A stretch of 64,000 nucleotides of DNA from a virus (IMGVR_UViG_3300047408_000076:1071-65070); one strand, 5' to 3'; positions 23,084 through 54,434 are shown, counted from the stretch's first letter. Program-made: numbers and translations. The notes: generated by a model not told the origin, from the letters alone.

Positions 23084-23327
23084 GGTGGTTGTCGCCGTCG
23101 CGTTGATGGTGGCCACCGTCATCCTTTTGGCACTCGTGATCTAAAGAGGTAGGCTGACTTGCTCCCGCTCGTCAGCGTACAGGCCCGCCGGGATGATCCC
23201 GCCATCCATCGGCATCCCGCCCGGCGGGCCACAGATTGACCGGCAAGGTGCCCCCTAGTCGGTCATAGGCCCACCGAGTCCCGACCACCATTGAGCCCGG
23301 TGGGCCGCCCATTCTTCGAGGTACACC

Positions 23328-23561
23328 ATGAATATTCCGATTGGCTGGTTCCTGCGAGCGTGGGATCGCTTCGGTGACTGGGCGTGCGTGCCCCTCAGAC
23401 ATAGCGGCAAGATCACCCGGTTCGATGTACTGTTCGCCATCAGTATCGTTGGTGTGGGTGCGGGCGCTTGGTACACGGATGGCTTGGATGGCTTCGTAAA
23501 GACGGAAGCCTCGGTCGCATTCGGGTATTTCGGTTTGTGGTTGTTGATGCCCAAGACATGA
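23328..23561 (+). CDS. Small membrane protein
   Basis: Two hydrophobic segments; SD GAGG. Confidence 0.45.
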   Translation: MNIPIGWFLRAWDRFGDWACVPLRHSGKITRFDVLFAISIVGVGAGAWYTDGLDGFVKTEASVAFGYFGLWLLMPKT

Positions 23562-24121
23562 GCGGTATGAGCATCGGTCGTGGCCATTTTTGGTATGGCG
23601 ATTATCCGTTTGTTGATCCAGATTTTGACGACGAGTGGAGCGACTGCGAGTTTCTCGCGCACGAAATTGAAATGACCGGCGCGGCCGAATTGCACCCTGA
23701 CGGCTTTTGCCACGACCTCGACGTGGTGCCATTGGTCAGCCGGCAATATACTGAGGGCATTGTCGCCGAGCTAAAGAAGCGCGAGTGGGCGCAGCACCTC
23801 AAGGACCGCAAGGCATGGCAGGAGCAGCACGAACACGAGCGGGAACTCCGGTCGCGCGCACTCGACATGCGGAACCTTGAGGTCACGCAGGCGCAACTGG
23901 ACGAGGCGCTGAGCGAGCTTCCGGCAGGGGAGCGGCCGCCGAGTATTCTCGCCGAGATGAAGCCGCACGATCCGCTCGCGCCCGGACAGGGCCGGGTCGT
24001 GGGCGACTATGTGATGATTCGCGAGCAAGATCGCGCCGTCTGGGCCGGCGATCCGGGGCGCGCCCGCCTGCCGCTGGTCTGGCAGGGGAGGGGGCTCCTC
24101 ATCTTCCGGCTGCGGTCCTGA
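23558..24121 (+). CDS. Hypothetical protein
   Basis: ATGA overlap at 23558; 187 aa with a coiled segment. Confidence 0.55.
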   Translation: MSGMSIGRGHFWYGDYPFVDPDFDDEWSDCEFLAHEIEMTGAAELHPDGFCHDLDVVPLVSRQYTEGIVAELKKREWAQHLKDRKAWQEQHEHERELRSRALDMRNLEVTQAQLDEALSELPAGERPPSILAEMKPHDPLAPGQGRVVGDYVMIREQDRAVWAGDPGRARLPLVWQGRGLLIFRLRS

Positions 24122-24319
24122 CCCCCCGGAACCCGGTCACCATTGCCATATGGATGGACCATTGGCCGTTTGTTTGGGCCATAAAGGCCATTTCGCCGCT
24201 AGTGCGCCTCCGGGCCGGCCCGGCTACCGGGGAGGCCCGGAAAAAAGGACGCGCCAGCGGCCCGCGCTGGGGCTTGGCGGGGCCTCCTATGGGCTTGCGG
24301 GATTCCGGCCTCCGGGCTT

Positions 24320-24510
24320 TCCGGGGCGGATTCGTGCCTCCCGGACGCGGGGCGGACGCGGGGCGGGGAAAGATAGACTCGCAAGCGAATATCTTGGCGC
24401 GGCCCGGAGCGGGGCCGGTGCGGCTTGGCGCGGGGAGCGGGGAGCGGGGCCGCGCGCGGTGCGGCTTGGCGCGACCCGGTGCGGGTCTCCGGGATTCGGG
24501 GCTCCCGGTG
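24320..24510 (+). repeat. G-run low-complexity tract (left), G-quadruplex-prone
   Basis: About 9 GGGG runs on the + strand, built from GCGGGG(A/C), GGCTTGGCGCG and GGTGCGG words. Confidence 0.7.
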
Positions 24511-24539
24511 AAGCGGACAATTTGGCCTAGTGAATCAAG

Positions 24540-24569
24540 TTGCAACGCGCGGAAAAATTTGCCATATAT
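24540..24569 (+). promoter_or_regulatory. Putative sigma70-type promoter for the AAA/vWA module
   Basis: TTGCAA-N17-CATATA, close to the rhizobial RpoD consensus TTGAC-N17/18-CTATAT; followed directly by GAGTC. Confidence 0.55.
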
Positions 24570-24778
24570 GAGTCCACCTTCGGGTTGCAAGCGGCGCGCC
24601 AATGCGCCCCCGATACCGGAGGGAAAGGACTCGGAGCGCTCCCGCATTAGATTGCGGACTCGTTGCTCCGATAGCCTGACAACGGACTCGCGCTAATGCG
24701 GGGAGGTTGTGAAGCGGCGGAACAAGCCGGGGCGCGCGTTGCGACTCGGTGAAACAAAATCCGCCAATGACTCCTAAC

Positions 24779-24879
24779 GTGAACACTAAGAGGGCCGCGC
24801 GCGTTGCGGCCCTTCATAGTGTCCATACGGATGCTCCCGGCTTGCTACCGGGCCTTTCCCAGATGAGGAGTCTAAAACA
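24779..24879 (+). ncRNA. Structured ~100-nt leader element, copy 1
   Basis: Long hairpin GTGAACACTA-AGAGGGCCGC/GCGGCCCTTC-ATAGTGTCCAT, then hairpin CCCGG-CTTGCTA-CCGGG, then SD GAGGAG. Confidence 0.7.
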
Positions 24880-25896
24880 ATGGCAGTAAATCAAGAGCAT
24901 GAAATCACGATATCGGAAGCGGCCGTCCGCTTAGAGATTCTAACGGACGCGGGCGACTCCGTTATGCTTTGGGGCGCGCCCGGAATCGGCAAGTCCGATA
25001 TCGTGCATCAATTGGGGGCGAAAAAGGGCCGCAAGGTAATTGAGTTCCATGCGGCATTGCGGGAGACGGTAGACCTTCGGGGAATCCCGGTTCCAGATTT
25101 GGCAACGGGCAAGACTCGATGGCTCATTCCCGATGAGCTTCCCAATGCGGAACGCGACGGGGAACACGGGTATTTATTTTGCGATGAAATCAATCAAGCT
25201 TCACCGCAAATGCAAGGAGTCCTTGGCGGACTCATTCTCTATGGCACAATTGGCGATTACAGACTCCCGGCCGGATGGCGGGTTATTGCCGCTGGCAATC
25301 GAGTCTCTGATCGCGCGGCCGCGCAAAGAATGCCGACTCATATGCGCAATCGGTTCGCTCATCTATTCATAGCACCCGACGTTAATGCGTGGTGCCAGTG
25401 GGCAAACGCGAATCGAGTCGCCCCGGAGGTTGTCGCGTTCGTCCGCTTGCGGCGCGAATTGATTCACCTAATGCCGAAGGGCGACGAAAATGCTTTCCCG
25501 ACTCCCCGCTCAATTACCAAAGCGGCGAAATACGTGAGCGCTCCGAAAGAGCATCGCTTGTCACTATTCGGGGCTTTGATTGGCGACGCGGTAGCGGCGG
25601 AATTGGACGGTTTTCTAGAGCTTTACCGTTCACTCGGTTCGCTGGACGATATCATAGCGAATCCGGCCGGTGCGCCCGTTCCTACGGAACCGTCATGCCG
25701 CTTTGCGGTCTGCACCGGGCTTGCTCGCATGGCCTCCCGCAAAAACTTTGGCGCGATCATTGACTACGCCAAGCGCTTGAACCGCGAGTCCGAAATCTTG
25801 CTGGTAACGGACGCAACGGGGCGCGATGAGAGTCTGAAAAATACTGCGCCATACGGGCAATGGGCGGTAGCCAATCAAGATTTGACAATCCAATGA
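24880..25896 (+). CDS. MoxR-type AAA+ ATPase
   Basis: Walker A WGAPGIGKS, Walker B LFCDE, AAGNR sensor I, RNRF arginine finger, FPTPRS sensor II. Confidence 0.9.
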   Translation: MAVNQEHEITISEAAVRLEILTDAGDSVMLWGAPGIGKSDIVHQLGAKKGRKVIEFHAALRETVDLRGIPVPDLATGKTRWLIPDELPNAERDGEHGYLFCDEINQASPQMQGVLGGLILYGTIGDYRLPAGWRVIAAGNRVSDRAAAQRMPTHMRNRFAHLFIAPDVNAWCQWANANRVAPEVVAFVRLRRELIHLMPKGDENAFPTPRSITKAAKYVSAPKEHRLSLFGALIGDAVAAELDGFLELYRSLGSLDDIIANPAGAPVPTEPSCRFAVCTGLARMASRKNFGAIIDYAKRLNRESEILLVTDATGRDESLKNTAPYGQWAVANQDLTIQ

Positions 25897-26054
25897 TTCA
25901 GCAAATCTTGATCTATGCGGCATATCTTTGCGGCATTGCCGCGTTTGGTTATGTCGCGCACCGTCGCGGCCATAACGGATTTTATTGGGGCTTGCTCGCG
26001 CTCCTGATAACTCCGCTTTTCGCATGGCCGCTTCTAAAACGGAGGCCAGAGTGA
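25893..26054 (+). CDS. Small two-TM membrane protein (53 aa)
   Basis: ATGA overlap; TM-HRRGHNGFYW-TM with terminal PL motif and basic tail. Confidence 0.6.
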   Translation: MIQQILIYAAYLCGIAAFGYVAHRRGHNGFYWGLLALLITPLFAWPLLKRRPE

Positions 26055-26150
26055 ACACTACAGAGTCGCCCTTCGGGGCGATTCGATAGTGTCCATACGG
26101 ATGCTCCCCGGCTTGCTCCGGGGCCTTTCCCAGATGAGGAGTCTAATACC
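26051..26150 (+). ncRNA. Structured ~100-nt leader element, copy 2
   Basis: Same lower stem; different upper stem GAGTCGCCC/GGGCGATTC capped by a C-UUCG-G tetraloop; 3' part nearly identical to copy 1. Confidence 0.75.
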
Positions 26151-27041
26151 ATGACAACAACAACTAAAATTGCGTCCCCTCTTTCCCGCAAGGCTACGCT
26201 TGTGGCCGTTAAAATCGGCGGATGGTCCGCGCGCAAATTAGACCGTGAAATCACAGCGGAGACGAACGCGCGGCACAATGCTTCGGCGGACGCGGGACGC
26301 TACAATAAGTTGCTGATCAATACGGAACGACTCGCCAAGCTCACGTCCCTCGCATCGCAAGCCCGGACGCTGCACTATTCCCTAACGAGTCCATGGGCGG
26401 ATGAGGGCGCGCGCGTTCTCCCCAATGCGTTCTATTCCAAGTTCACCGATGAGTTTAGAATCTTAAAGCGGGAGTTTAGTGCAGCGGCGGATGAGTTCGC
26501 ACGCGATTATCCCGCGTTCGTTCAAGAGCGAAAAGCGCAATTGAACGGTGCTTTCAAGGAGTCCGATTATCCTTCCGCTTCGGAGATTCGCGGCAAGTTC
26601 CGGCTTGAAATCGCGGTGCTTCCGTTCCCGGACGCGGCGGACTTCCGCTCCGATTTGGACGATGACACCGTGGCCGATATCAGGGCGGAGATTGAAGCGA
26701 CTTCGGGCGCGGTGCTGCAAGACTCTTTGAAGGACGCGGCAGAACGTATCATCAAAAAAGTCGGACATATGGCCGCGAAGCTTAAGGAATATAAGACTGG
26801 CAAGCCCGGTGAACGTAAGTTTTTCGCGGACTCGCTTGTGGAAAATGTCCGCGAGCTTGCGGCAATGCTCCCGGCTTTCAATCTTGCGGACGATGCGGCA
26901 TTGACTGCCATAACGGAGCGAATTGAAAAAGAGTTGTGCGCGGAGGACGCACAAGCGCTCCGGGATAACGACTCCGCCCGCGAGTCCGTCGCAAAATCGG
27001 CGGACGATATTGTAGCGGAGGTTTCAAAGTTTTTAGCCTAA
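26151..27041 (+). CDS. DUF3150-like helical protein
   Basis: 296 aa with TSPWADEGARVLP and DYPSASEIRGKF motifs; typical partner of AAA/vWA pairs in phages and ICEs. Confidence 0.55.
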   Translation: MTTTTKIASPLSRKATLVAVKIGGWSARKLDREITAETNARHNASADAGRYNKLLINTERLAKLTSLASQARTLHYSLTSPWADEGARVLPNAFYSKFTDEFRILKREFSAAADEFARDYPAFVQERKAQLNGAFKESDYPSASEIRGKFRLEIAVLPFPDAADFRSDLDDDTVADIRAEIEATSGAVLQDSLKDAAERIIKKVGHMAAKLKEYKTGKPGERKFFADSLVENVRELAAMLPAFNLADDAALTAITERIEKELCAEDAQALRDNDSARESVAKSADDIVAEVSKFLA

Positions 27042-27138
27042 GCCCTACTAAGCGGAGTCCCAATGGGACTCCGTCATAGTGTGGCCAAAGCCCCGCTCCC
27101 CGGCTTGCTCCGGGGCCTTCAATCAAGAGGAGTCCAAT
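27042..27138 (+). ncRNA. Structured leader element, copy 3 (diverged)
   Basis: GCCCTACTA/TAGTGTGGC lower stem, CGGAGTCCC/GGGACTCCG upper stem, CCCCGG-CTTGCT-CCGGGG hairpin, SD GAGGAG. Confidence 0.7.
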
Positions 27139-28656
27139 ATGAATCTCGACTCGACGACAACGGACGAACGCGCGGCATATCGTGTTATGCAGGCCCGTTC
27201 CGCCCTGATCAAAGCTCGCCGATTCTACGGTGTATTGGTTTCAAATGTGGAACCCGTAGCATCGCGACAATTCCCGACAATGGCAACGGATTCAAAGCGT
27301 CACTTCTATAATCCCGATTTTGTTGCGACACTGACTCAAGAGCAATTAGAAGCGGTGCAAGCTCACGAAACGGAGCATGACGCGCGGCACCATTCGACGC
27401 GGCGCGGGAATCGCGACCCGCAAGAATGGAATATCGCTTGCGACCTTGCGATTAATCCTGACTTGAAGGCGGAAGGATTCAAGCTCCCCGATTGGGTGCT
27501 ATTCGAAGAACGGTTCCGGGGAATGTCCGCCGAAGACATATACCGGACGCGCGAGCTAGACCGGCAAAAGCAAAATCCGCCACCGCCTCCGCCGACTCAA
27601 AAGGGCGACGATGAGGAATCCGAATCTGGACTCGAACAAGCCGACACTAATCCGGGCGGGAATGAGGGCGAGTCCGATGAGGGCGACGAGTCCGAAGGCC
27701 CCGCCGGCCCCGATGAGGGCGACGATGAGGGCGACGATGAGGGCGACGGGGAGGCCGGCCCCGGTGAAGGCCCGGAGGGCGACGGGGAGGGCGAGTCCGA
27801 AGGCCCCGCCAAGGGCGACGGGGAGGCCGGTGAAGGCCCCGCCGAAGCCGGGGAGGCCGGGGACGCTGGCAACGGTGCGGGCGACGGTGAAGGCCCGGAG
27901 GGCGACGGGGAGGCCCCGAAGGGCGAACCGCGTTCGTCCGGTGATCCCGGCCGGTGCGGGGAGGTTTTAGACGCGGGCGAATCGGCCGGCGAAAAAGCGG
28001 AGACTGACCAGAAATGGGAAAGGATAGTGCGCCAAGCCGCTTCTATGGCACGGGGAATCGGGCAACTCCCCGGCCACATTTCCCGCGACATTGAACGGGC
28101 GAATAATCCGCCGCAAGATTGGCGGGAGGTTCTCCGGGCTTGGTTTGATCAGGGGTCGCTTTGGGTTGAGTCCTGGAACCGGCCCAATCGTCGCTTTGCG
28201 GGCGCGGGCTTGTACCTTCCGGGGCGGCAACGCGACGGACTCAATCGAGTCGCGTTCATAATTGACACAAGCGGGTCGATGGACAATGTGGCATTGCAAT
28301 TGATCAGGAATGAAACGCAAGCCGCTTTGGACGATGGCGCAATAGATGAGGTTGTTTGCATCTATGGTGACACACAAGTAAATCGGGTGGACACTTGGCG
28401 CACGGGCGATGAAATGATTTTCGACCCGCGCGGCGGCGGCGGAACGGTGCTTCGTCCGCTTTTCGACTACGTTGCGGAACAAATAGACGATGCTTCCCTA
28501 ATCGTTTGTTTCACCGATATGGAAATAGATGATTTGGGGCCGGAGCCTCCCGCTTGTCCGGTGCTATTCGCCGCGACGGGCTATCCTGACAGAGTCCGTT
28601 ATTATCTTGAAAACGCCCCATGGGGCGCGCCCGGAATCGATATCGGGGCGCACTAG
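27139..28656 (+). CDS. Putative metallopeptidase + vWA-like protein (DUF2201-type)
   Basis: N-terminal HETEH (HExxH), WNIACD..IN, acidic Gly/Glu/Asp/Pro linker, C-terminal IDTSGSM (MIDAS DxSxS), GGGGT and FTD. Confidence 0.85.
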   Translation: MNLDSTTTDERAAYRVMQARSALIKARRFYGVLVSNVEPVASRQFPTMATDSKRHFYNPDFVATLTQEQLEAVQAHETEHDARHHSTRRGNRDPQEWNIACDLAINPDLKAEGFKLPDWVLFEERFRGMSAEDIYRTRELDRQKQNPPPPPPTQKGDDEESESGLEQADTNPGGNEGESDEGDESEGPAGPDEGDDEGDDEGDGEAGPGEGPEGDGEGESEGPAKGDGEAGEGPAEAGEAGDAGNGAGDGEGPEGDGEAPKGEPRSSGDPGRCGEVLDAGESAGEKAETDQKWERIVRQAASMARGIGQLPGHISRDIERANNPPQDWREVLRAWFDQGSLWVESWNRPNRRFAGAGLYLPGRQRDGLNRVAFIIDTSGSMDNVALQLIRNETQAALDDGAIDEVVCIYGDTQVNRVDTWRTGDEMIFDPRGGGGTVLRPLFDYVAEQIDDASLIVCFTDMEIDDLGPEPPACPVLFAATGYPDRVRYYLENAPWGAPGIDIGAH

Positions 28657-28660
28657 ACGC

Positions 28661-28696
28661 AAGGGCCGGCCCCGCAACGGGCCGGCCCTTTTTTTT
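28661..28696 (+). terminator. Rho-independent terminator after the vWA gene
   Basis: 12-bp perfect stem AAGGGCCGGCCC/GGGCCGGCCCTT plus T8. Confidence 0.9.
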
Positions 28697-28699
28697 GTC

Positions 28700-28860
28700 C
28701 GCGCTCCGGGCTTGGCGCGCGCGGGGAGGCCGGTGCGGGGAGGCGGGGAGCGGGGAGGCCGGCGGGAGCGGGGAGGCCAGCGGCGCGCGCGGTGCGGGGA
28801 GCGGGGCCGGTGCGGGGAGGCCGGCCGGTGCGGGGAGCGCTCCGGGCCTCCGGGGAGTCG
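28700..28860 (+). repeat. G-run tract (right), 8 copies of GCGGGGAG, G-quadruplex-prone
   Basis: GCGGGGAG at 28721, 28735, 28743, 28750, 28768, 28794, 28812 and 28830; shares an 18-mer with the left tract. Confidence 0.8.
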
Positions 28861-28891
28861 CGCCGCGAATTGGACCATACCATTGAACGTC

Positions 28892-28930
28892 AAAGGCCCG
28901 CTCCGGGGAACCGGGGCGGGCCTTTTTTTT
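28892..28930 (+). terminator. Second rho-independent terminator
   Basis: Stem AAAGGCCCGCTCCGG/CCGGGGCGGGCCTTT, GGAA loop, T run. Confidence 0.85.
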
Positions 28931-29183
28931 GTCCCGCTTGCTACAGGACAAAAGAGGAGTCGCTAATCTTTCGATTGGCAATGGCAATGGTACGCGCACC
29001 GCTCCGCCAAAGCAACAGCTAAAGGATTCTCACATTGTGAGCGGAGCAATGTCGGAAAGATTTTCACATTGCATGGCGACCAATAGTTCTTGCATTTCGG
29101 AAAAATATTCCATACACAATGTTTGATTGATTGAAGCGAATGAGGTCGCGCACGGGATATCGCGACGCGGAGCAAACAAACAA

Positions 29184-52124: not shown

Positions 52125-54434
52125 TTGAGCACGCAAGCGCACGAGATCGTCTACCGGCGGCCGCCGCTCTATGACAAGCAGCGGGAGGCCATGTTCGATC
52201 CGGCGCGCATCTCACTGATTGAGGCGTCGACCAAGAGCGGCAAGACGGTCTCGGGCATCATCTGGCTGTACGAGCAAGCCATGATGGGCAAGCCTGGGCA
52301 GAATTTCTGGTGGGTTGCGCCAGTTTCGATGCAGGCGCGCATCGCGTTCAATCGCATGCGGCAGAACTTCCTCGATCAGGACGGGCGACCGATCTTCACG
52401 GTCAATGCCACTGACCACACGCTGACCAACGCGCGCGGTGCAGTGATCGCGTTCCGCTCTGGCGATCATCCTGACTGCTACGATGACCAGACCGATGTGC
52501 TGACGCAGCGAGGATGGATACCGTTCTCGGAACTGGTCGATAGCGACAGCATCATGACCCGCTCGCCTGCGGGGGAGGCGCAGTGGCAGAAGCCGACGCG
52601 GATCGTGCGCCATTTCTACGACGGCGAGATGGTTTCAATTCAGAACAGCCGCATCAGCTTGCGGGTCACGCCGCATCACCGGATGCTGGTCGAGCGCAGG
52701 CGCAAGGACGGGCTCAAGGAGCTATGGACGCGGGCCGATGAACTGAAGCCGCATGACAGCATCCCGGCCCAAGCAAGCTGGGTTGGCGTGGACGATCCAG
52801 CGATCACGGAGGATCAGTGCGCGCTACTTGGGTTCTATCTCGCCGAGGGATCGGCGCTTGGCAATGCGAGTAGCGAAGAGAAGGCGCGGGCGCTCACGGC
52901 AAGGATGGGATACCGCATCTTCTTCGCGCAGACAGCGGGCGTGAAGGGCGGCAACAAGGGCGATGTGCGAACAGCTTTTGCTGATCTACTGACGCGCATG
53001 AATTATCATGTGCGAGAGCGGCGAGATGGCCTGCTGATCTGGGACAAGGCACTGTGGGCGAAGCTGATCGCTCTTGGCAACAAATACACCAAGACGATCC
53101 CGCAGAAGATCAAGGACCTTCCACCGCACAAGCTGCGCGTGCTGTTGCACTGGATGATCTTGGGCGACGGCACAAGCAGGACGACGGTTGGCGGTTTGGA
53201 TGATCTGACCTATGCGAGTGCAAGCAAGCGGCTTGCCGACGACGTGCAGGAGATCGCGATCAAGTGCGGCCTCTCCGCGACGATCAAGACCAAGCCAACG
53301 GTGGCCTATCCGCGCGCAGGCGCGAGACCGTCAGGTTACCCGCTCTACATCGTTCGCATTCATTCGCCGCGCTCGCATCATCTGTCGTCCTCGAAGTGCG
53401 GGCGCTATTACGGCAAGGTCGGCTATCGCGGTATGATCTACTGCGCCAGCGTTCCCAACACGTGCATGTTGGTACGACGTGAAGGCAAGCCGTGCTGGTC
53501 GGGCAACACGCTCTATGGTGAAGATGTCTATGCCTGTGTGATTGACGAGGCGTCGCGCTTCAAGGAAGAAAGCTGGCACGCGATACGTTCGACATTAACG
53601 GCGACGCGCGGGCCGATCCGCATCATCGGCAACGTCAAAGGCCGCAAGAATTGGTTCTACCAGCTCGCGCGGCAGGCTGAGCAAGGACTTCCGAATCTTG
53701 CGTACCACAAGCTCACGGCATGGGACGCGGTCAATGCTGGCGTGCTCACCAAGGAAGAGATCGCGTCGGCCAAGGCGATGCTGCCCGAGCAAGTGTTCCG
53801 CGAGCTGTATCTCGCTGAGCCGAGCGACGACGAGGGCAATCCGTTCGGTGTGCAGCACGTTCGCGCATGTCTTGCGCCGCTTTCGGAGCGGCCGGCAATC
53901 GCATGGGGTTGGGACCTCGCGCGCAAGCAGGACTGGACGGTCGGCATCGGTCTCGATGCTGATGGGCGCGTGTGCGAGGCATTTAGGTTTCAGAAGCCAT
54001 GGCACGAGCAAGTCGAAATCATTAAAAAGTTCGTGGGCAACTCTCCAGCCCTGGTGGACGAGACAGGTGTTGGCGATCCGATCGTGGAGGCGATCAAGCT
54101 GCCGGTGCGCAAGGGCAGCAACGGAGCCGAGGTTATCGAGCTGAGCTGCCCGAGGCTTGAAGGCTATCGCTTCACCACGGCCAGCAAGCAGATGCTGATG
54201 GAAGGGCTGGCGCTGGCGATTCACGAGCGCAAGATTCGTTTCCCTGAAGGCCCGATCTCGATGGAGCTGATGAACTTCGAATATGAGTTCACGCGGCTCG
54301 GCATCAGGTACGGTGCGCCTCCTGGCATGCACGACGATTGCGTCTGTGCGCTCGCGCTGGCGTGGCGCTGCTTCGACAATAGGAAGCTGGCCTACGATCA
54401 GGACCTGTCATGGATCAGCGGTGACGACAAATGA
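52125..54434 (+). CDS. terL: Terminase large subunit containing an intein
   Basis: EASTKSGKT Walker A, VIDEA Walker B, IIGN motif, nuclease GWDLARKQDWTV and HDDCVCALALA. Confidence 0.9.
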   Translation: MSTQAHEIVYRRPPLYDKQREAMFDPARISLIEASTKSGKTVSGIIWLYEQAMMGKPGQNFWWVAPVSMQARIAFNRMRQNFLDQDGRPIFTVNATDHTLTNARGAVIAFRSGDHPDCYDDQTDVLTQRGWIPFSELVDSDSIMTRSPAGEAQWQKPTRIVRHFYDGEMVSIQNSRISLRVTPHHRMLVERRRKDGLKELWTRADELKPHDSIPAQASWVGVDDPAITEDQCALLGFYLAEGSALGNASSEEKARALTARMGYRIFFAQTAGVKGGNKGDVRTAFADLLTRMNYHVRERRDGLLIWDKALWAKLIALGNKYTKTIPQKIKDLPPHKLRVLLHWMILGDGTSRTTVGGLDDLTYASASKRLADDVQEIAIKCGLSATIKTKPTVAYPRAGARPSGYPLYIVRIHSPRSHHLSSSKCGRYYGKVGYRGMIYCASVPNTCMLVRREGKPCWSGNTLYGEDVYACVIDEASRFKEESWHAIRSTLTATRGPIRIIGNVKGRKNWFYQLARQAEQGLPNLAYHKLTAWDAVNAGVLTKEEIASAKAMLPEQVFRELYLAEPSDDEGNPFGVQHVRACLAPLSERPAIAWGWDLARKQDWTVGIGLDADGRVCEAFRFQKPWHEQVEIIKKFVGNSPALVDETGVGDPIVEAIKLPVRKGSNGAEVIELSCPRLEGYRFTTASKQMLMEGLALAIHERKIRFPEGPISMELMNFEYEFTRLGIRYGAPPGMHDDCVCALALAWRCFDNRKLAYDQDLSWISGDDK
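52476..53507 (+). mobile_element. Intein with LAGLIDADG homing endonuclease (344 aa)
   Basis: N-terminal CYDDQTDVLTQRGW, block B TPHHRML, LLGFYLAEGS and LLHWMILGDG blocks, C-terminal WSGN followed by Thr. Confidence 0.9.

Follow-up and report, generated by a model that had tools for sequence, protein, structure and literature searches.

The closest described counterparts of the element reported here are the RNase III processing sites of bacteriophage T7 (R0.3–R1.3), the SAS and ESAS of Cluster K mycobacteriophages, and the promoter-early stem-loops (PeSLs) of T4-like phages. The function of SAS and ESAS is still unknown (PMC3203893; PMC12699233), and PeSLs are composite terminator/promoter sequences (PMC4122927). 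E. coli RNase III substrates typically comprise two helical turns, and internal loops limit cutting by the enzyme to one phosphodiester, so that an exonuclease-protective 3′ hairpin remains (PMC1540722). Here we describe an RNA leader present in three copies in a 64,000-nucleotide stretch of viral DNA (IMGVR_UViG_3300047408_000076:1071-65070; this whole stretch is hereafter referred to as the window), each copy located ahead of one of three large genes encoding an AAA ATPase, a DUF3150 protein, and a VWA-metallopeptidase protein. These leaders represent a previously undescribed family of ~100-nt intercistronic RNA elements in a clade of uncultured soil phages, and the best explanation for the family is that it punctuates the polycistronic message of the ATPase/DUF3150/VWA-metallopeptidase module.

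A first-pass annotation of the window had placed the three copies at 24779-24879, 26051-26150, and 27042-27138, before three large genes, and sequence and Pfam matches confirmed both the places and the genes (Table 1). Hairpin 1 (H1) is an interrupted helix of about two turns. Strands A and B form its lower stem (8 bp), which a small internal loop separates from an upper stem that is 9-10 bp long, free in sequence, and capped by a stable tetra- or pentaloop. Hairpin 2 (H2) has a stem of 5-6 bp and a conserved loop of the CUUGCA(A) type, and is followed by an A-rich spacer with a conserved Shine-Dalgarno motif (GGAGUC). Folds of the window copies agree with the H1 architecture as first described, including the lower stem (ACACUA/UAGUGU, with compensatory GCC.UACUA/UAGUG.GGC in copy 3) and upper stems that are unrelated in sequence among the three copies, yet all fully paired (with a UUCG cap in copy 2). 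Copies 1 and 2 are nearly identical except for the upper stem; in copy 3, strands A and B and the linker C that precedes H2 are all altered together relative to copies 1 and 2 (GCC/GGC/GCC). H1 contains 3+6+10, 3+6+9, and 3+5+10 base pairs in copies 1, 2, and 3, respectively (18-19 bp in total), and the z-scores of the three folds ranged from -2.8 to -3.65 as compared to dinucleotide shuffles. H2 in the window reads CCC(C)GG-CUUGCU(A)-CCGGG(G) and is followed by GAGGAGUC and, after a further 4-7 nt, by the ATG, consistent with the nearly fixed start codon distance noted earlier. Two features had been missed, namely a middle hairpin that involves the 3′ strand of the lower stem, described below, and a degenerate fourth copy (28889-28971). 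In this relic, a canonical terminator hairpin with a T8 tract (28892-28933) occupies the place of H1 and is followed by a hairpin-2-like GUCC-CGCUUGCUACA-GGAC and by GAGGAGUC (28954-28961); no usable start codon was found at the right distance, and no gene follows.

Relatives were gathered from IMG/VR by protein-guided searches with the DUF3150 and ATPase proteins, which recovered ~55 contigs with ATPases 52-84% identical to that of the window; the intergenic regions of these relatives presented the same architecture with a different sequence. Because the stems lack sequence similarity, MAFFT and RNAalifold on the raw copies yielded only four pairs, and this approach was replaced by a hand-annotated seed (18 copies, hand-drawn structure) and covariance models. 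Model R1 was built from the seed; model R2 was built from relatives' sequences only, from an alignment gathered with R1, whose seed had included the window copies. R1 gave 186 matches at E < 0.01 in 60 relatives' loci, representing 110 distinct gene-strand copies in ~45 related phage contigs, and zero matches in 650 kb of unrelated viral DNA; the covariance search of phage DNA proposed in the first-pass annotation thus returned covarying homologues. On the whole 75.7-kb genome, R1 found three strong matches and the relic, and a pattern search and R2 agreed. Because R2, a relatives-only model, recovered the three window copies with strong scores (E values from 2.6e-18 to 5e-10), with nothing comparable elsewhere in the window, their occurrence by chance is excluded. 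A loose palindrome pattern run over IMG/VR matched many contigs, and the element was found in none of the 75 outside the clade. No known motif was matched in Rfam 15, where nothing reached the gathering score over the whole window, only chance-level matches were seen at E ≤ 10 over 24400-27400, and nothing was found over the elements of six relatives' loci at E ≤ 0.1. Among cultured phages, blastn with 24500-28700 gave no match, and the ATPase protein was at most 36% identical. Some clade members lack the element (L123, equivalent to L006), with ~14-20 nt intergenic gaps between the three genes, and others (L113/L012) present only a long H1-like hairpin without H2. From the states of L006 and L012 it follows that the element has been lost or remodelled repeatedly in the clade.

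The consensus consists of g-UGA-nCACUg, a 1-2 nt interruption, the upper stem, CA, cAGUGUUC, a 4-5 nt loop, and GAACACU in the 5′ part, and of H2 (5-6 bp stem, loop CUUGCAA), the A-rich spacer, and GGAGUCAC, with the AUG 3-5 nt further on, in the 3′ part. The Shine-Dalgarno motif of the relatives is GGAGUCAC or AGGUCAC, as compared to GAGGAGUC in the window. Identity of at least 90% was observed at only four positions, of which three form the GUG of strand B and the fourth is a G in the Shine-Dalgarno motif. Compensatory changes were found in 22 of the 22 modelled H1 and H2 pairs across 117 distinct rows; on these rows, 89.9% of H1 and H2 cells were paired, as compared to 67.7% in column-shuffled controls and 34-48% with slid partners, and the covariation score was 0.53 vs. 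0.17, all counts that lean towards the modelled pairs, as the alignment was fitted to the model structure. One lower-stem pair is two-state (G-C in 57 rows, A-U in 54). The commonest H2, with a 5-bp stem and the 7-nt loop CUUGCAA, resembles a tRNA anticodon arm (anticodon UGC) in its size and in its Y-U-NNN-R-N pattern; all H2 loop variants share GCAA, or GC in the window's CUUGCU.

The elements span from the upstream stop codon, often located within the lower stem, to the next start codon. Of 113 copies, 94 start at -12 to +14 nt from the stop of an open reading frame (ORF) of at least 50 codons, and in 105 the 3′ end coincides with the start of an ORF of 40 codons or more. The stop lies at model position +1, within strand A, in 56 of the 113 copies, including window copy 2, and this stop is UGA in 54 of 55 relatives' copies. 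In five relatives' genomes (64-82 kb; CheckV 91-100% complete), all matches clustered around the ATPase gene, within a single stretch of 4.6-6.3 kb. While the leaders do stand before large genes in the window, as first described, this description needs amendment for the clade, where the elements form a module family found also ahead of small variable genes; in relatives' modules, an element precedes each of the ATPase, DUF3150, and VWA genes, as well as each member of a variable assortment of genes encoding 57-98-aa proteins. A gene encoding a small basic protein (...AVVKA[N/A]GYRVSKP...) occupies three positions in three relatives (Table 1), with an element ahead each time, suggesting that gene cassettes are shuffled at the element repeats.

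This cassette-like behavior of element plus gene is what would be expected if the element acted at the DNA level, either as a PeSL-like terminator/promoter cassette or as a recombination hotspot, with hairpins that are incidental palindromes; in T4-like phages, PeSLs are repeated intergenic motifs that mediate such shuffling (PMC4122927). We consider a DNA-level element very unlikely. No sigma-70-like promoters were found in the three window leaders, no conserved -10-like block was seen by eye, and the hairpins lack U-tracts; furthermore, stems vary within one genome yet stay complementary, arguing against sequence-specific recognition of double-stranded DNA. Wobble pairs also presented a marked strand asymmetry, with G·U vs. 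A·C at 81:5 in the upper stems and 41:18 in the middle hairpin, and the apical tetraloops were GNRA or UNCG in 30 of 43 distinct cases (chance estimated at ~5%), both of which are RNA signatures. Opposite-strand matches were weak echoes with far lower scores, and strong matches were nearly all on the gene strand. The G·U excess, the GNRA/UNCG tetraloops, and the weakness of the opposite-strand matches support that the element acts as a folded RNA of the gene strand; a function as RNA, first proposed from structure conserved over sequence, is in line with these data, with the strong covariation, and with the covarying homologues in many related phages. Shuffling may then be a by-product of the element repeats.

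Several further identities were examined and rejected. An intrinsic terminator would be expected to carry a U-tract, and at least five U in the next 8 nt were present after H1 in 1, after the middle hairpin in 0, and after H2 in 8 of 110 copies; a terminator scan of the window flagged true terminators at 28661 and 28892 only. A PeSL-type promoter cassette was rejected in the absence of promoter-like sites in the three leaders; moreover, the distance from the H2 loop to GGAGUC is 20-25 nt among copies, which misfits a fixed -35/-10 spacing. A hand check of spacings led to rejection of CTTGCA as part of a sigma-54 or sigma-70 promoter. Integron attC sites carry R″/R′ core sites (RYYYAAC ... GTTRRRY) at the ends of an imperfect palindrome; the 5′ end of the leader, GUGAACAC, and its 3′ strand, UAGUGUYC, misfit these core sites. 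Finally, GAGTC was not retained as a GANTC (CcrM) site; GANTC is not a property of the family, because relatives' islands are unenriched (2.3 vs. 2.4 per kb) and the motif of sub-clade L011, GGUCAC, contains no GANTC.

Strand B, the 3′ side of the lower stem, is complementary not only to A, but also to the downstream linker C; paired with C, it yields a middle hairpin (Hm) of 7 bp immediately next to H2 (AGUGUCC-AUAC-GGAUGCU in the window; AGUG.GGC-CAAA-GCC.CGCU in copy 3). B:C was paired in 89.8% of cells, as compared to 77.6% after shuffling and 27-47% with slid partners, with 67 double changes vs. 12.9 expected; this comparison is less exposed to model-fitting, since C had been aligned as unpaired sequence. 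Pairing with A persists at 69 of the 96 variant B bases, and pairing with C at 65. The A:B and B:C conformers are nearly isoenergetic (mean difference -2.3 ± 2.5 kcal/mol), and window RNA folded without strand A and the upper hairpin is predicted to form Hm stacked directly on H2, with zero spacer. It is possible, though doubtful, that the element is a two-state RNA device in which B has two independently covarying, near-equal partners while A holds the upstream stop; such a fold would signal either the recent completion of upstream translation or a fresh cut in the message, and would rewire the 5′ end of the next cistron.

One way in which the two pairings could be used requires no cleavage. 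In a termination-sensing translational coupler, a ribosome at the stop codon in A would melt A:B, B would flip to C, and the flip would license or time downstream initiation, resulting in a fixed cistron ratio. The frequent placement of the stop of an upstream ORF (at least 50 codons) at +1 in strand A, including in window copy 2, fits such a coupler, as do the stop that directly adjoins A in copy 3, the covariation of both nearly isoenergetic conformers, and the lack of an element at the sole ATGA-overlapping gene pair in the window. However, predicted accessibility of the Shine-Dalgarno motif hardly moves when A is blocked (0.32 to 0.37; p 0.03; 23 rise, 9 fall), a marginal effect, and no conserved pairing partner for this motif could be identified within the element, so that its sequestration by C or another part of the element is unsupported. 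A helix proposed to close the element between the stop codon (GUGA) and the UCAC that follows the Shine-Dalgarno motif presented no covariation (65.5% paired vs. 64.7% shuffled) and was rejected. In addition, 26 copies retain UGA at +1 without its serving as the stop of a long ORF, no long ORF lies upstream of window copy 1, and a coupler leaves unexplained why the span of H1 is fixed at two helical turns. We regard the coupler as rather improbable.

The geometry of H1 is constrained across the family. An apical helix of 9-10 bp was found in 64 of 110 copies, and the loop measures 4-5 nt; the interruption, located ~9-10 bp beneath the apical loop, comprises 1-2 nt on the 5′ side in 85 of 109 copies and 2 nt on the 3′ side in 76 of 109; and base pairs and interruptions together give a helical span of 19-21 in 79 of 110 copies, the base pairs totalling 16-18. 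H1 thus presents the ~two helical turns of double-stranded RNA and the internal loop (as far as its presence is concerned) that characterize RNase III sites (PMC1540722), where such a loop can restrict cutting to one strand. The rules given there for antideterminant base pairs in the proximal and distal boxes are those of E. coli and may not be those of the phage host. The tightly kept two-turn span and the central 2-nt interruption are consistent with the resemblance to RNase III sites suggested by the first-pass annotation. Because H1 combines free sequence with fixed geometry and with these RNase III substrate features (PMC1540722), we favor, tentatively and with slightly less than even confidence, a cut at the internal loop, after which a strand swap would cap the 5′ end thus created.

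The cleavage step, the enzyme responsible, the sequence of refolding events, and the consequences for stability and translation are inferred as follows. In the primary transcript, A:B pairing would complete a two-turn double-stranded RNA, which a double-stranded RNA endonuclease, most likely host RNase III, would cut at the internal loop of H1. The upper hairpin would be left as a cap at the 3′ end of the upstream message, while B, now at the new 5′ end, would swap to C and form a 5′-terminal Hm stacked directly on H2. H2 had been assigned the role of guarding the new 5′ end; in the amended model, Hm would cap this end first, and Hm on H2 would shield the downstream message from 5′-end-dependent decay. 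Each cistron would then keep an identical insulated ribosome-binding region, favoring balanced output of the module proteins. Cleavage plus strand swap would explain why H1 is constrained in length, why B has two partners, and why the element lies between cistrons.

The cistrons could also be parted without a protein nuclease, by a self-cleaving ribozyme, given that the fold is compact and multi-helical at intercistronic positions and that a GCAA-type H2 loop could form a tertiary contact. The invariant cores of known small ribozymes are far larger than four positions, and the leaders have merely four positions conserved at 90% or more and match no known ribozyme family in Rfam; a ribozyme appears extremely unlikely, and we place it, together with the DNA-level cassette, among the unlikely explanations.

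Some observations weigh against cleavage with strand-swap capping. Apart from the model-fitted H1 and H2 pair counts mentioned above, the upstream stop is often embedded in strand A, which a ribosome-driven switch fits equally well, and simple end protection does not explain the conserved H2 loop (CUUGCA(A), with CUAGCAA or CGCAAC in sub-clades), which hints at a specific binding partner. In an RNA-binding-protein operator, a phage or host protein would bind each leader at the H2 loop and perhaps also at the internal loop of H1, with module-wide control of translation, stability, or antitermination, similar to coat-protein or boxB-type hairpins. The loop is conserved on a covarying stem, with CUUGCAA or CUUGCA the commonest (35 of 83 copies with a parsed hairpin-2 loop), the sub-clade variants are expected if the loop co-evolves with a binder, and in complete genomes a single module holds all of the elements. 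There is, however, no candidate RNA-binding protein that all islands share; the window island encodes only the ATPase, a 53-aa hydrophobic peptide, the DUF3150 protein, and the VWA protein. As an operator by itself also leaves the length-constrained H1 and the two partners of B unexplained, this alternative seems to us fairly improbable, and cleavage with strand-swap capping is retained as the tentative choice.

Table 1. Coordinates of the leader copies, their parts, and neighboring genes in the window, and of a mobile small gene in relatives (stems and loops separated by slashes)
Feature	Position	Strand	Evidence and remarks
Leader copy 1, ahead of AAA_5 ATPase gene	24779-24882	+	Sequence, folds; 79.9 bits (R1), 73.5 bits (R2)
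Copy 1, strand A	24779-24788		Hairpin 1
Copy 1, upper stem	24790-24799 / 24800-24804 / 24805-24814		Stem / loop / stem of hairpin 1
Copy 1, internal-loop CA	24815-24816		
Copy 1, strand B	24817-24826		
Copy 1, alternative middle hairpin	24818-24824 / 24829-24835		
Copy 1, hairpin 2	24836-24840 / 24841-24847 / 24848-24852		Stem / loop / stem
Copy 1, GAGGAGUC	24865-24872		
Copy 1, ATG	24880-24882		
Leader copy 2, ahead of DUF3150 gene	26051-26153	+	Sequence, folds; 70.4 bits (R1), 61.2 bits (R2)
Copy 2, strand A	26051-26060		Contains TGA stop (26052-26054) of 53-aa ORF
Copy 2, upper stem	26063-26071 / 26072-26075 / 26076-26084		Loop UUCG
Copy 2, strand B	26087-26096		
Copy 2, middle hairpin	26088-26094 / 26099-26105		
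Copy 2, hairpin 2	26106-26111 / 26112-26117 / 26118-26123		
Copy 2, GAGGAGUC	26136-26143		
Copy 2, ATG	26151-26153		
Leader copy 3, ahead of DUF2201_N/VWA gene	27041-27141	+	Sequence, folds; 41.4 bits (R1), 43.6 bits (R2)
Copy 3, strand A	27042-27050		Immediately 3′ of TAA stop (27039-27041) of DUF3150 gene
Copy 3, upper stem	27052-27061 / AAU / 27065-27074		
Copy 3, internal-loop CA	27075-27076		
Copy 3, strand B	27077-27085		
Copy 3, middle hairpin	27078-27085 / 27090-27097		
Copy 3, hairpin 2	27098-27103 / 27104-27109 / 27110-27115		
Copy 3, GAGGAGUC	27127-27134		
Copy 3, ATG	27139-27141		
Degenerate fourth copy (relic)	28889-28971	+	12.8 bits, E 0.18 (R1); 17.7 bits, E 0.007 (R2)
AAA_5 (MoxR-like) ATPase gene	24880-25896	+	Pfam PF07728; PHROG 1297 ATPase, E 7.7e-78; behind copy 1
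53-aa ORF	25893-26054	+	Sequence and translation; two hydrophobic segments judged by eye
DUF3150-like gene	26151-27041	+	Pfam PF11348, E 1.7e-4, under curated cutoff; behind copy 2
DUF2201_N metallopeptidase-like and VWA-like gene	27139-28656	+	Pfam PF13203 (E 5.4e-40) and PF09967; behind copy 3
Canonical intrinsic terminator closing the three-gene unit	28661-28698	+	12-bp GC-rich stem and T8
Small basic protein gene	L097:5107-5280		Between ATPase and DUF3150 genes
Small basic protein gene	L099:7664-		After VWA gene
Small basic protein gene	L148:2767-3048		Upstream of ATPase gene

The window covers bases 1071-65070 of an IMG/VR virus record of 75,675 bp, whose direct terminal repeats identify it as a complete phage genome (75.7 kb). 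Near-identical DNA was listed for five soil-metagenome DNA runs, with soil metagenomes as the sole source type and no RNA run among the matches listed; the phage is an uncultured soil phage. The closest ATPase in prokaryote genomes was 41% identical, and these genomes gave no prophage or host clue; a sub-threshold Rfam match at L148:423-495 in a relative to the Bradyrhizobiaceae sRNA BjrC68 (25.3 bits, gathering score 39, E 0.018) is at most a weak hint at an alphaproteobacterial host. A 769-aa ORF (52125-54434), presumably the large terminase, presented only remote matches among cultured phages. The module is flanked upstream by a 1136-aa SPRY-domain ORF and other large ORFs, which we take to be tail genes, and downstream by a recombination/helicase block. 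Within the module, the ATG of the 53-aa ORF overlaps the ATPase stop as ATGA, and this ORF has no leader of its own, its stop codon being embedded in leader copy 2. Neither the 53-aa ORF nor the window ORFs in 23100-24780 have a homologue among the relatives' loci; DUF3150-like proteins of relatives are 62-63% identical, with unchanged gene order. A scan for tRNA and tmRNA genes found none.

GANTC is ~3.7-fold enriched at 24000-28700 (68 in ~5 kb vs. roughly 9 per 2.5 kb elsewhere in the genome); it is near-absent in some relatives (0 in 9 kb in L111 and L112; 0.2-0.8 per kb in the islands of L120, L131-L133, and L143). GGACTCG/GACTC motifs are repeated upstream of copy 1 (24620-24775, at ~24626, 24655, 24683, 24741, and 24768); the last of these (~24768), GACUCCU, is complementary to the AGGAGUC Shine-Dalgarno sequence of copy 1 and is paired with it in the predicted minimum-energy fold. 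A G-rich stretch (28700-28850) with imperfect GGGGAGGCCGG/GCGGGGAG repeats lies between the near-identical terminators at 28661-28698 and 28892-28933, just ahead of the decayed fourth leader. Further downstream, an operator-like palindrome, TCACATTGTGA (29030-29040), with a half-copy, TCACATTGCA (29064-29073), and a promoter-like pair (TTGCAT...TACACA within 29030-29110) are located ahead of the next gene block.

To our knowledge, the AAA ATPase/DUF3150/VWA-metallopeptidase module is widespread and has no known function in phages; a literature search on DUF3150 in phages returned nothing relevant. The near-identical leaders carried by each gene suggest that stoichiometric expression matters for this module. 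If cleavage with strand-swap capping is correct, a well-populated covarying RNA family, with more than 100 distinct copies and none in Rfam, would join the few known phage intercistronic processing or insulating elements; the same strand would complete a nuclease substrate before the cut and cap the new 5′ end after it, with both states conserved. As a two-state device, the element would represent a natural, protein-independent intercistronic insulator or switch, and a portable cassette boundary reused for a MoxR-type ATPase/VWA machine and its accessory genes. In the construction of balanced synthetic operons, such compact natural insulators could be useful parts.

Among described systems, the T7 early-gene RNase III sites (R0.3–R1.3; model R1.1), which have counterparts in polycistronic mRNAs of other phages, likewise recur between cistrons as hairpins of about two turns interrupted by a central internal loop, located between a stop and the next ribosome-binding site, and with upper stems free in sequence; the shared expected product is an upstream mRNA with a 3′ hairpin cap, which for the leaders would follow from the proposed cleavage. 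R1.1 RNA is cut by the RNase III of E. coli and also by that of Sinorhizobium meliloti (PMC6121014). There is no sequence relationship between the T7 sites and the leaders, however, and three parts are additions of the leader family, namely the strand-swap hairpin (B:C) with its covariation, the second hairpin with its conserved loop, and the conserved Shine-Dalgarno motif; the family is also confined to one gene module rather than to an early region. SAS and ESAS share with the leaders a conserved Shine-Dalgarno-containing motif a few bases upstream of many starts (PMC3203893; PMC12699233), often a preceding imperfect inverted repeat with a variable spacer, a single orientation, a location mostly outside structural genes, and a consensus that varies by sub-clade. 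The SAS consensus, GGGATAGGAGCCC (13 nt, 3-8 bp upstream of starts), differs from the leader GGAGUC(AC), so that the likeness is architectural only; in addition, SAS phage hosts are Actinobacteria, and SAS are spread over the right genome arm, whereas leaders are confined to one module. ESAS is a conserved 17-bp repeat; by contrast, the apical stem of the leader is free in sequence and fixed in length, within an element of three helices and an alternative pairing. PeSL cassettes, like the leaders, are repeated composite intergenic motifs flanking small variable genes (PMC2839356, PMC4122927) and coincide with cassette gain, loss, and reshuffling among related phages, a coincidence that the leaders may share; no promoter or U-tract was found in the leaders, which present RNA signatures instead. 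As compared to these systems, the conserved strand swap and the module specificity of the leader family are unusual.

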